Below, in pieces: positions 34,248 through 36,467 of a stretch of DNA of 41,191 bases. How positions within the stretch are numbered: the first letter of the stretch is position 1; the number at the start of each line of letters is the position of its first letter. The stretch is from a virus (taxonomy: Duplodnaviria > Caudoviricetes), in IMG/VR virus record IMGVR_UViG_3300036376_000001, positions 1 through 41,191 of that record; one strand, given 5' to 3'. A program made the position numbers and the translations under genes. The notes beneath the pieces were generated by a model. That model was not told where the DNA came from. It saw only the letters and a program-made list of their open reading frames with translations, and did not search any database.

Positions 34248-35738
34248 CTAGGCGTACGGATCGCGCCGCCGCTTATGCAGGTCGTTGAAGTGCTTCATGC
34301 TGGGAAGCCGCATCCGGCCACCCACCAGCATGTGGCTCTCCTCGACCGGCTTTTCCTCCGGACGCCGCGGTACCCATGGCCGCGACATGCACCCGTAACG
34401 GGCCTCGTCCGCGACGTGGTCCTCGCCGTCCGTGTCCAGGTCTTCCGGATGGTCCGGGTCGTGCTGCAGGCTCGGCACCGTGCGGATGAAGTCCTTGCAC
34501 GTGTCGAACACAAACAGCATGGGCCGTCCGTCGTGGTCACCCTTCAGTCGCTGGCGCATCTGGTCCCAGCCCGACAGCGCGCCCAGCTTGGCGACGCGCT
34601 TGTTGTCGGCAGGGCGCCACGCCACACCGGCCCGCATCATCCGCTCGGCAATCGAAGGACCGCCGTCTACGGCGAAGGCTGCGGGGTCTAGGACGCCGTA
34701 GCTGATTTTGTCGCCGCGCTCTCGGTCCTTGATGCCTTCGGCAACTTCTTCCGCTGTAAGTCGGAGCCCGACGTTTGGCGCACTTGCGCCGTACCACTCT
34801 CGATAGCGGACCATAGCGCCGCGAGGAAGCACTCGACCTCCTCCGAGCGAAGTGTCATCGCCCACGACGGCCCACCAACCAATCGAAAATGGACGCGCGC
34901 TTCCCCAGTCGCCGGATCGAAAGCGCAGCCAGTCATCCGGTAGCTGGAACGGTTCAATGACGTGACGGGCGGTGCTGAAGTTGTCAAAAAACGCGCCTTC
35001 GATTACGGACCAATCGCCGTCCAGCCATGCCTTGACCAGAGCTTCACTACCACTCGCGCGGAGCCGGGCGACGTATCCCTCGTCCAGATGACGGTTGTCC
35101 GTGACACGCGAAGGGATGAAAATGCGCTCCAGACCCGAAGCCTGATCCTTGATGCGAACCCACCCGCGCGGATCGGGGTCAATGTAGCGAGCTTTGACCC
35201 AGGTATGGCCCGGCCCTCCGGGGTTCGCCGTCGCCCTGAAGCCGCACGGCACGCCAGCGCCGGAACGCAGCGTCGCCATGAGCTTCATGACCGGCTTGGG
35301 ATCGGGAAAGTTCGTCAGCTCTTCGATGTAGACGCGGGTGTAGCTGTGGCCCTGGTAGGCTTCCGCGTCGGCGTCGCGCTCGAGGTAGGCAAAGCGCAGG
35401 CGTGCCCCGTTCGGGAACCGCCACATCTTGTCCTGCTCGTGGAACTTGGCGCCCAGCTTCGTGTAGATCGCCCGGCTGCGCTCGATGGTCTCGACGAGCT
35501 GCGTGCGCTCCCGGCGGAGCATCAGGCCAATGGCGTTCTCGCCGTACCTGTCCGCGTGGTTGATGAACTCGCCGAGCATCCCCTCGGTTTTGCCAAGAAC
35601 GTCTAGCCCCCCAGCCCGAAGACCGGGGGGCTAGACGCCTCCACCTCGTGCGCCGCCAAACAACACTTCAAAGACCGGACACGTGACAAGTGCGGTCTGA
35701 GGTCCTGGATTTGGGGTCCATGCGTATTCGTCAGACAT
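34248..35738 (-). CDS. terL: Terminase large subunit interrupted by a 45-nt in-frame insert in Walker A (481 aa if removed)
   Basis: 5' segment MSDEYAWTPNPGPQTALVTCPVFEVLFGGARGGG, then after the insert KTEGML...; Walker B VYIEELT; ATANPGG; nuclease DWG...DHVADEARY. Confidence 0.92.
35592..35639 (-). other. Hairpin insertion with an in-frame UAG, candidate translational-bypass element
   Basis: GGC GUC UAG CCC CCC GGU CUU CGG GCU GGG GGG CUA GAC GUU CUU GGC; 19-bp stem with a cUUCGg loop. Confidence 0.8.
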
Positions 35739-36180
35739 GCTTCCACGTTTCGTTTTTGAGAAGACGATAGACCGTGATTTCCGCAATGCCAAAATGCTCG
35801 GCCAATGCGCGTTGGCTCACGCGGCGCGGCACGTACCATTGACGAATGAGCCGCACCGTTTCTTCCGAAAGCGCTAGAGGTCCGGCGCGCTCACCCTTGG
35901 CCTGTCGCCCCTTCGCAACCTTATCGGCCATGTTGTCCGCTGGCGTTCCCAGCGACAAATGTTCTGGGTTCACGCACTCGCGGACATCGCATTTGTGCAT
36001 GACCAGTTTGTCGGAAGGGACCGCTTCACAGAACACCTCGTAGGCGAGCCGATGCGCCCGCCACGTCTTGCCCTTAAGTTTCGCTTTGCCGTAGCCATCC
36101 TGTCCTATCGTACCCGTCCACAGCCAGCAGCCGGTGTTGGGCTCAGGCTGGCAGCGATCCGTAATGTAGGACTGGCTCAT
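35731..36180 (-). CDS. HNH endonuclease between terS and terL
   Basis: GCWLWTG..GYG..AHRLAY..HKCDVRECVNPEHL..NMAD; C-terminal HTH; overlaps both neighbours. Confidence 0.9.
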   Translation of the reverse strand: MSQSYITDRCQPEPNTGCWLWTGTIGQDGYGKAKLKGKTWRAHRLAYEVFCEAVPSDKLVMHKCDVRECVNPEHLSLGTPADNMADKVAKGRQAKGERAGPLALSEETVRLIRQWYVPRRVSQRALAEHFGIAEITVYRLLKNETWKHV

Positions 36181-36467
36181 CAATGCTCCCGTGTGTTCGG
36201 AAGATACCGCTTTTCCCATTCCTCGACGGACGCGGGCTCTACGGGCATGCGGGCCACCATGTGGTGCACCACGTCTGCATTGATGTCCGTTGAGGACAGG
36301 TCCGGCATGACCTTTCGCATCAACGCAATGGCTGCAGTCACTTGGGTGCTGGTCATCTCGACCTCACCCATGACATGGTCAATCAACCTGTTGAGGATTT
36401 TTGAGTTTGCGATTTTAGTCCGGTGTTCTTCCGGCATCACAAACCCCGGCTTTCGCCCACGGCTCAT
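36180..36467 (-). CDS. terS: Terminase small subunit
   Basis: Small protein upstream of terL; TQVTAAIALMRKVMPDL. Confidence 0.65.
   Translation of the reverse strand: MSRGRKPGFVMPEEHRTKIANSKILNRLIDHVMGEVEMTSTQVTAAIALMRKVMPDLSSTDINADVVHHMVARMPVEPASVEEWEKRYLPNTREH

Follow-up and report, generated by a model that had tools for sequence, protein, structure and literature searches.

To our knowledge, natural programmed ribosomal bypassing has been proven in very few cases, namely gene 60 of phage T4 and its relatives, the byps of yeast mitochondria, and the terminase of phage Hau3. Phage terL genes are also known to hold group I introns and inteins, which are mobile inserts at conserved sites linked to homing endonucleases. 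The MobA cassette, its wobble-matched codons and its mini-Shine-Dalgarno (SD) element have been described by Manning and Atkins (bioRxiv 10.1101/2022.08.31.505936); that account also states that gaps of the T4 type have no premature landing sites in their 3' part and that MobA is often lost in T4-like phages, and the word terminase is absent from its main text. In Streptomyces phage Hau3, PMC10732093, which cites Smith et al. 2013, places UUA-led 10-nt inserts in terL, the first of them (g6/g7) between GWG and KD; bypass was confirmed by mass spectrometry in E. coli with UUA changed to UAA, and a developmental sensor has been proposed for the Hau3 and prophage terminases, given as 3 of 100 genes. 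A further source on the known systems is bioRxiv 10.1101/2024.12.09.627546. Gaps of the stop-led or hairpin kind at GGAxGGGK were reported in none of the main texts searched, which included few subscription journals.

The window, the whole 41-kb virus record analysed here, belongs to a temperate tailed phage; it encodes an integrase and a repressor, has genes for replication, packaging, head, tail and lysis, and contains one terL only. This DNA-packaging motor gene lies on the minus strand (35738−34248), and its ATP-binding loop (Walker A motif or P-loop) is interrupted by 45 nt between Gly34 and the Lys of GGARGGG/KT; the insert preserves the frame and adds 15 codons. The third Gly of the motif (codon 34) is followed by GTC (35636−35634) and TAG (35633−35631), then by 12 further codons, a GGC, and the Lys codon AAA (35591−35589) of the Lys-Thr pair. 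The stem formed with the upstream GGC has 15 Watson-Crick and four G-U pairs; the fold of this region reaches −44.4 kcal/mol as RNA, equalled by 0/200 shuffles, and −19.5 kcal/mol as DNA, and the stem folds better in the sense than in the antisense direction (−38.9 versus −28.6). Three GGY triplets precede the proposed landing codon, at gap positions 13, 21 and 29, all of them within the stem. No second copy of the insert occurs elsewhere in the genome, and a PDB search matched residues 97−291 only, with the P-loop outside the matched part. The original prediction had described a frame-preserving 45-nt insert containing a UAG, a 19-bp UUCG-capped stem that takes in the upstream GGC, and identical GGC codons on either side; the coordinates, codons and fold (z −6.21) agree with all three (Table 1).

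Table 1. Positions of the interrupted terL and its neighbouring genes and elements in the window
Feature	Position	Strand	Basis
terL 5' part, codons 1-34, ends GGARGGG	35637-35738	−	phrog_979 match, residues 3-260
Proposed take-off codon GGC, codon 34	35637-35639	−	End of terL 5' part
45-nt coding gap: GTC, TAG, hairpin body, CTT, GGC	35592-35636	−	Absent in 76/76 homologues covering the motif
19-bp stem with C(UUCG)G loop (35620-35617), its 5' base occupied by the take-off codon	35598-35639	−	Fold z −6.21
Proposed landing codon GGC, abutting the Walker A Lys codon	35592-35594	−	Gly-like last triplet family-wide
Putative Shine-Dalgarno-like GGAGG made by Gly33-Gly34	35638-35642	−	Gly codon bias in insert-bearing genes
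Putative second Shine-Dalgarno-like element, G6 run in 3' arm	35607-35612	−	11-12 nt before landing codon
terL 3' part, 447 codons, Lys-Thr to stop	34248-35591	−	phrog_2, PF03237
Free-standing HNH endonuclease, probable start 36180	35731-36219	−	phrog_59 (6e-33), PF13392
Probable terminase small subunit (terS)	36180-36467	−	Position; weak similarity (6e-08) to an L007 ORF matching terS phrog_641

The insert is probably a gap skipped by a GGC-to-GGC bypass of peptidyl-tRNA-Gly, which would have spread or arrived together with the HNH gene as a homing cassette. The GGC-to-GGC hop put forward in the original prediction is still the best reading and has gained comparative support; the HNH gene overlapping terL and the wider family of inserts had been missed. 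Elsewhere in the genome about 240 nt (window about 20340−20580, minus strand) interrupt the gene for the major capsid protein, and this split looks like a probable group I intron without an ORF; Rfam RF00028 covers it with the whole model on the right strand at 15.8 bits and E 0.14, below the gathering score. A tRNA-Val(GAC) gene (1089−1161, plus strand) that reads the GUC following the take-off codon lies near the integrase gene, and its locus is perhaps the attachment site.

The motif is unbroken in all 76 related terL loci that cover it, from a set of 80 of which the other four are cut by contig ends at the motif. Logan contigs of run X1 carry the insert at depth 45 with no variant letters and no joint across it; as X1 is possibly the source sample, these contigs guard against assembly error and are not independent evidence. 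A contig of run X4, from another study, is continuous from 35410 to 36263 and spans both the insert and the HNH gene, with 148 other letters and 7 gaps relative to the window (roughly 83% identity). In a contig of run X2 the match to the window ends at 35594 and is followed by an insert-free Walker A motif, which represents the empty allele; this contig has 90 other letters over about 950 nt and is about 90% identical to the window. Assembly error was rejected as an explanation on the basis of the X1 contigs and of the family of inserts at the same codon. At three other loci (L061, L062 and L006) the terL 5' part and the rest lie in different frames or segments, with matches from residue 134 and a frameshift before Walker A among them; these splits may be errors or other inserts.

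Lys-Thr/Ser stands directly after the insert in all contexts but one (L404, with Asn), and the gap of the window contains no in-frame start codon ahead of the Lys; the two halves of terL therefore have to be joined. Re-initiation at a canonical start was rejected for the window on the latter ground. Substitution rates show the downstream terL ORFs to be under purifying selection: dN/dS is 0.091/0.429 between the window and L003, its closest intact relative, and among insert-sharing pairs, computed for 17/18 pairs without the window/L687 pair, it is 0.004/0.203 (L716/L696), 0.028/0.809 (L371/L369), 0.018/0.673 (L882/L390) and 0.115/1.85 (L716/L741); conservation extends to the 24 codons upstream. 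Of the downstream ORFs that reach a stop within the locus, 38/40 are 385−495 aa long; two insert-bearing ORFs break early, at 156 and 296 aa, which counts against the bypass reading.

This selection bears on the view that the gap blocks terL, either in a decaying prophage or in a phage with helper-supplied packaging, and that the family survives on background stop-hopping. The integrase and repressor genes mark a temperate phage, and searches of cultured phages found no carrier (the best 60 of 988 tblastn records were all single-piece matches, and DNA searches with three hairpin regions returned nothing or intact genes). In addition, 34414 and 36410 adjoin in a 58-nt X1 contig (depth 19.9), where 1995 bp (34415−36409) with most of terS, the HNH gene and terL would be missing in frame as a minority variant; however, the joint is weak evidence, with a short side of only 28 letters. 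The other structural ORFs are long and open, their sole other break being the intron-like split of the capsid gene, and with purifying selection also in the pairs that share an insert, a blocked terL is considered unlikely.

IMG/VR was scanned for Walker A codons followed by anything but A, by a stop, or by a C run, and matches were retained where the downstream DNA matched a terL profile. This filter passed 109/1602 motif matches, which represent 57 distinct contexts including the window: 42 inserts of 1−9 nt and 15 hairpins of 36−67 nt, each of them placed after the third Gly and before the Lys. One C-run scan of IMG/VR gave 7 of 119, and a metagenome scan for hairpin inserts gave 1 terL in 120 loci, on the same contig as L090. 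In GTDB, 9/11 matches to the 5-nt pattern are terL with an insert, L874 and L878 having been excluded by eye; the record names are Megasphaera (2), Pelotomaculum, Syntrophomonadaceae, Bacillaceae, Isosphaeraceae, Salinisphaerales, Deinococcus and Oculatellaceae, although these are mostly MAG contigs, possibly mis-binned, and three resemble viral matches already counted. The pattern of the 6-nt class found none in GTDB. A stop after the second Gly, one Gly earlier, was seen in 25 terL among 70 loci, 18 of them distinct (L892, L894, L897, L900, L901, L903, L905, L906, L908, L909, L911, L923, L925, L928, L932, L939, L944 and L947); the scan for this position fails as a control for site specificity because inserts occur there too. 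These inserts are stop-led and 5−10 nt long, with the next Gly GGR in 12/18 and a landing GGN in 18/18.

For the GGAAGGG motif, 31/120 loci from the scan for a following letter other than A carry an insert in terL, which scales to about 72 contigs; the intact motif occurs in about 16,000 contigs (114/120 sampled were confirmed as terL), giving an insert share of about 0.5% of terL. On a FastTree phylogeny of 181 terL, which excludes ORFs under 280 aa and has many weak nodes, 23 changes are required to account for the inserts and nine for the hairpins; the gaps have therefore been gained, moved or lost many times. One-base inserts in L369, L371, L416, L321 and L440 create a UAA directly after the third Gly; these inserts, common to diverged relatives under purifying selection, are candidates for a +1 frameshift at the stop.

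In the two scans run with no stop in the pattern, short inserts are stop-led in 22/24 cases; the exceptions, L670 and L578, have 1−2 extra bases at the G run and may be sequence errors. Among inserts of at least 4 nt (n=77), the last triplet has a middle G in 74/77 and begins with G in 51, A in 24 and C in two. The third bases of the take-off and landing triplets are Y/Y in 64, Y/R in seven, R/Y in three and R/R in three (Fisher p=0.026, kinship uncorrected); 37 of the 64 Y/Y pairs are identical and 27 have C and U swapped, so tRNA wobble fits better than a direct repeat. One tRNA-Gly reading both GGC and GGU would thus suit the triplets better than a duplicated target. The wobble-class rule leaks, since GGT to GGA or AGA is seen; many landing triplets are mismatched (e.g. 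AGY and GAC), at position 1 in 26/77 and at position 2 in 3/77, and the 1-nt inserts give poor re-pairing, both of which count against the bypass.

A common GCCCC...GGGGC stem begins 5−6 nt after take-off in 14/15 hairpins, a spacing imposed by the search pattern for some that holds in 9/10 long inserts from unbiased scans. With the stem ends as anchors for the count (a MAFFT alignment of nine hairpins was out of structural register), all 126 cells at nine stem positions are paired, with 114 Watson-Crick, 12 G-U and no A-C pairs; compensatory changes occur at positions 6−9, position 8 alone showing five types of pair. In 14/15 inserts the fold of the sense strand is better than that of the antisense. 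The structure is therefore selected as mRNA; a look for other inserts with covarying stems at this codon had been suggested in the original prediction. The exception is L564, whose 45-nt hairpin insert is of a different sequence type without this stem; its take-off codon is GGT, the insert ends in GGA, and its first and last triplets pair.

The G-U pairs in the mRNA are also what disfavours a loss of the gap at the DNA level, or its skipping by an RNA polymerase that slips between the GGC repeats so that a minority makes normal TerL. The window does have direct GGC repeats flanking a near-perfect palindrome; however, each G-U pair is a mismatch on the template strand, A-C is absent throughout, and exact identity of take-off and landing triplets is found in only 13/50 inserts at the third-Gly codon. 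No joint lies at the insert site in the X1 contigs, which drop rare variants. Slippage or deletion is accordingly considered very unlikely.

All 15 hairpin inserts contain an in-frame stop, including the seven of length 3n; the first stop falls at codon 2 in seven of them, at codons 5−8 in another seven and at codon 1 in the remaining one. It is extremely improbable that the UAG of the window is read through or reassigned, with TerL tolerating a 15-residue loop insertion. Such an insertion would keep the frame, but it would separate the P-loop glycine from its lysine, and 8/15 hairpin inserts shift the frame; in addition TAG ends 5/39 annotated genes, terL among them, and no suppressor tRNA was found in the genome.

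The original prediction had offered a second route: after decoding of GUC the ribosome would stall at the UAG, and peptidyl-tRNA-Val would move over 36 nt to GUU, so that the P-loop gains three residues. In the window the geometry permits such a hop. It would place the stop directly after the take-off codon as in T4, a position matched by the codon-2 stops of six other hairpin inserts, and a single tRNA, encoded by the phage, reads both GUC and GUU. However, the first insert codon recurs by identity or wobble in the last four resume-frame triplets of 0/14 hairpins (L696 has a first-position mismatch only), GUU is a pairing partner in the stem, and the loop length that would grow is constant in 76/76 homologues; with no counterpart in the other 14 hairpins the Val hop is poorly supported, and it is held to be highly improbable.

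A further possibility is that the insert is a micro-intron, excised from the mRNA by an unknown endonuclease-ligase. Selection of the stem as sense-strand RNA, terminal three bases able to pair in 11/15 hairpin inserts, and the probable group I intron elsewhere in the genome are compatible with such excision. An insert of 45 nt is too short to self-splice, and the original prediction had already set aside a group I or II intron on length; Rfam likewise gives no match over the insert site. Moreover, inserts of 1−9 nt led by an in-frame stop occupy the same site and are unable to fold, so RNA excision cannot explain the short class, and the flanking triplets are coupled in wobble class, which speaks for a tRNA; the micro-intron is decidedly unlikely.

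A Gly-to-Gly bypass is preferred because it is the sole reading that covers the stop-led 4−10-nt gaps, the frameshifting hairpins and the in-frame hairpins. The Gly codons themselves differ from those of intact genes: at the first Gly of the GGG run, 29/45 insert genes use GGG versus 13/113 random intact genes (relatedness uncorrected), and at the second, 19/45 use GGA versus 19/113. Comparison of anti-SD energies gave p=0.067 in the GGAAGGG class, which is not significant, and p=0.004 in the rest; together the codons suggest a Shine-Dalgarno role. If the stem is looped out, the GGAGG would stand 5 nt from the landing GGC, and 5 nt is a usual SD spacing. The distance from the G run to the landing codon is 11−12 nt in the window and 2−8 nt in most relatives, as against ~6 nt for the mini-SD of T4 type.

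It is proposed that the G/C stem, with the UAG as a backup, slows a ribosome whose peptidyl-tRNA-Gly is paired with GGC34, and that the anticodon then releases while the stem re-forms over the take-off codon, which would leave the GGY triplets inside the stem unscanned. The register would be set by an SD-like element, either the GGAGG of Gly33-34 or the G run of the 3' arm; the tRNA would re-pair on GGC 35594−35592 and translation would resume at the Lys to give a 481-residue TerL, with the UAG removing ribosomes that fail to hop. The GUC after take-off is a common codon in this phage (32 per 1000), which counts against the proposal, and the tRNA-Val(GAC) carried by the phage speaks against GUC being a hungry codon; with a common sense codon after take-off and GGY triplets in the stem, the stem would have to set off the hop and itself escape scanning.

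The end of the HNH gene overlaps the start of terL by 8 nt, and the gene lies between terL and the probable terS, which has no family match of its own. Among the two nearest upstream ORFs, a Pfam HNH or GIY-YIG nuclease is present at 5/46 insert loci versus 1/128 intact loci (p=0.005). PHROGs adds a nuclease at L701 and L731, as against 0/50 intact ORFs tested, and L699, L731 and L391 have GIY-YIG matches just under the cut-off in a looser test made on insert loci only. Most insert loci are without a detected adjoining nuclease, which counts against the cassette. The closest intact relative, L003, has no upstream nuclease or HNH gene, and its terL DNA identity to the window is 84−99% over codons 75−400 after the Lys and 57−76% before that, with synonymous distance raised upstream; L392 and L755 have the same step in identity at the insertion point, which is the pattern expected of a co-converted tract. 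An endonuclease beside the insert, its absence from the empty allele and the co-conversion tract are the features by which a homing cassette is recognized, and from these comparisons the HNH gene is likely the homing partner of the gap. The insert would shield its allele from the endonuclease encoded beside it, and both would in this way spread into gap-free relatives. Three more HNH genes are found in the window (3970−4446, minus strand; 8222−9022, plus strand; 17600−18034, minus strand), the last of which has a 79-nt stretch in common with the terL-adjacent HNH gene at 75%. In L056 a GIY-YIG gene (2676−2993) stands directly upstream of an uninterrupted terL.

A broader reading, put forward only tentatively, is that the P-loop Gly run offers ordinary bacterial ribosomes a general platform for bypassing, one that homing endonucleases have repeatedly exploited. 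The G-rich codons would anchor the ribosome as an internal Shine-Dalgarno element, and peptidyl-tRNA-Gly could skip gaps as short as 1 nt or as long as a 67-nt hairpin with neither an adjacent stop nor a matched landing codon required, and nucleases of both the HNH and GIY-YIG folds would take part in phages of several bacterial phyla. If this holds, bypassing would be a common, recurrently evolved immunity device. About 80 natural variants at one motif, with gaps of 1−67 nt and with or without a hairpin, an adjacent stop or a matched landing codon, could serve to test which signals bypassing needs, and would generalise the T4 idea of a gap as the immunity part of a homing cassette; the 0.5% or so of terL with the motif that carry inserts would also be mis-annotated, as broken or as starting after Walker A.

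Compared with the known systems, the group I introns and inteins of terL bring their own splicing catalyst and span hundreds of bases, whereas the insert described here has no such catalyst. The GWG/KD junction of Hau3 is presumably the P-loop G/K junction, the same one that holds the window insert. Hau3 is alike in the large terminase gene and apparently in the junction; it differs in that its inserts are 7−10 nt long, led by the rare codon UUA and set in a different terminase family, whereas the window insert has 45 nt and starts with GUC, and the available account of Hau3 describes no long hairpin, no stop-led series and no endonuclease link. The byps of Magnusiomyces mitochondria, as introduced in the account of the MobA cassette, resemble the present inserts in length (27−55 nt), in their mobile-element-like spread, in a wobble or looser match of take-off and landing codons, and in having a sense codon after take-off (bioRxiv 10.1101/2022.08.31.505936); they differ in using mitochondrial ribosomes, in occupying many genes, and in that the codon after take-off has no tRNA, whereas that of the window is common.

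T4 gene 60 with MobA (NC_000866) is the closest in design: both have matched Gly take-off and landing codons (GGC/GGC in the window, a looser match family-wide), a UAG near take-off, a C(UUCG)G stem whose 5' side contains the take-off codon, a G-rich SD-like element (putative in the window) ahead of landing, a gap of similar length (50 nt in T4), and an upstream free-standing HNH gene that is lost in many carriers. The likeness claimed in the original prediction holds for the GGC pair and the UUCG stem of the window; across the family it is looser, with the stop at codons 5−8 in 7/15 hairpins and with mismatched landing triplets, which the window's relatives tolerate. The target also differs, being the terL P-loop, whereas the T4 element, which comprises MobA and its coding extensions, sits in a gene for a topoisomerase large subunit; in the window one sense codon, GUC, stands ahead of the stop, the stem is longer, G/C-rich and nearly fills the gap with no AU-rich 3' part, the gap has internal GGY triplets, and the nascent peptide is the N-terminus of TerL itself. 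The proposed bypass in the window is considered to work like that of T4 gene 60, at a locus that is not a member of the T4 element.
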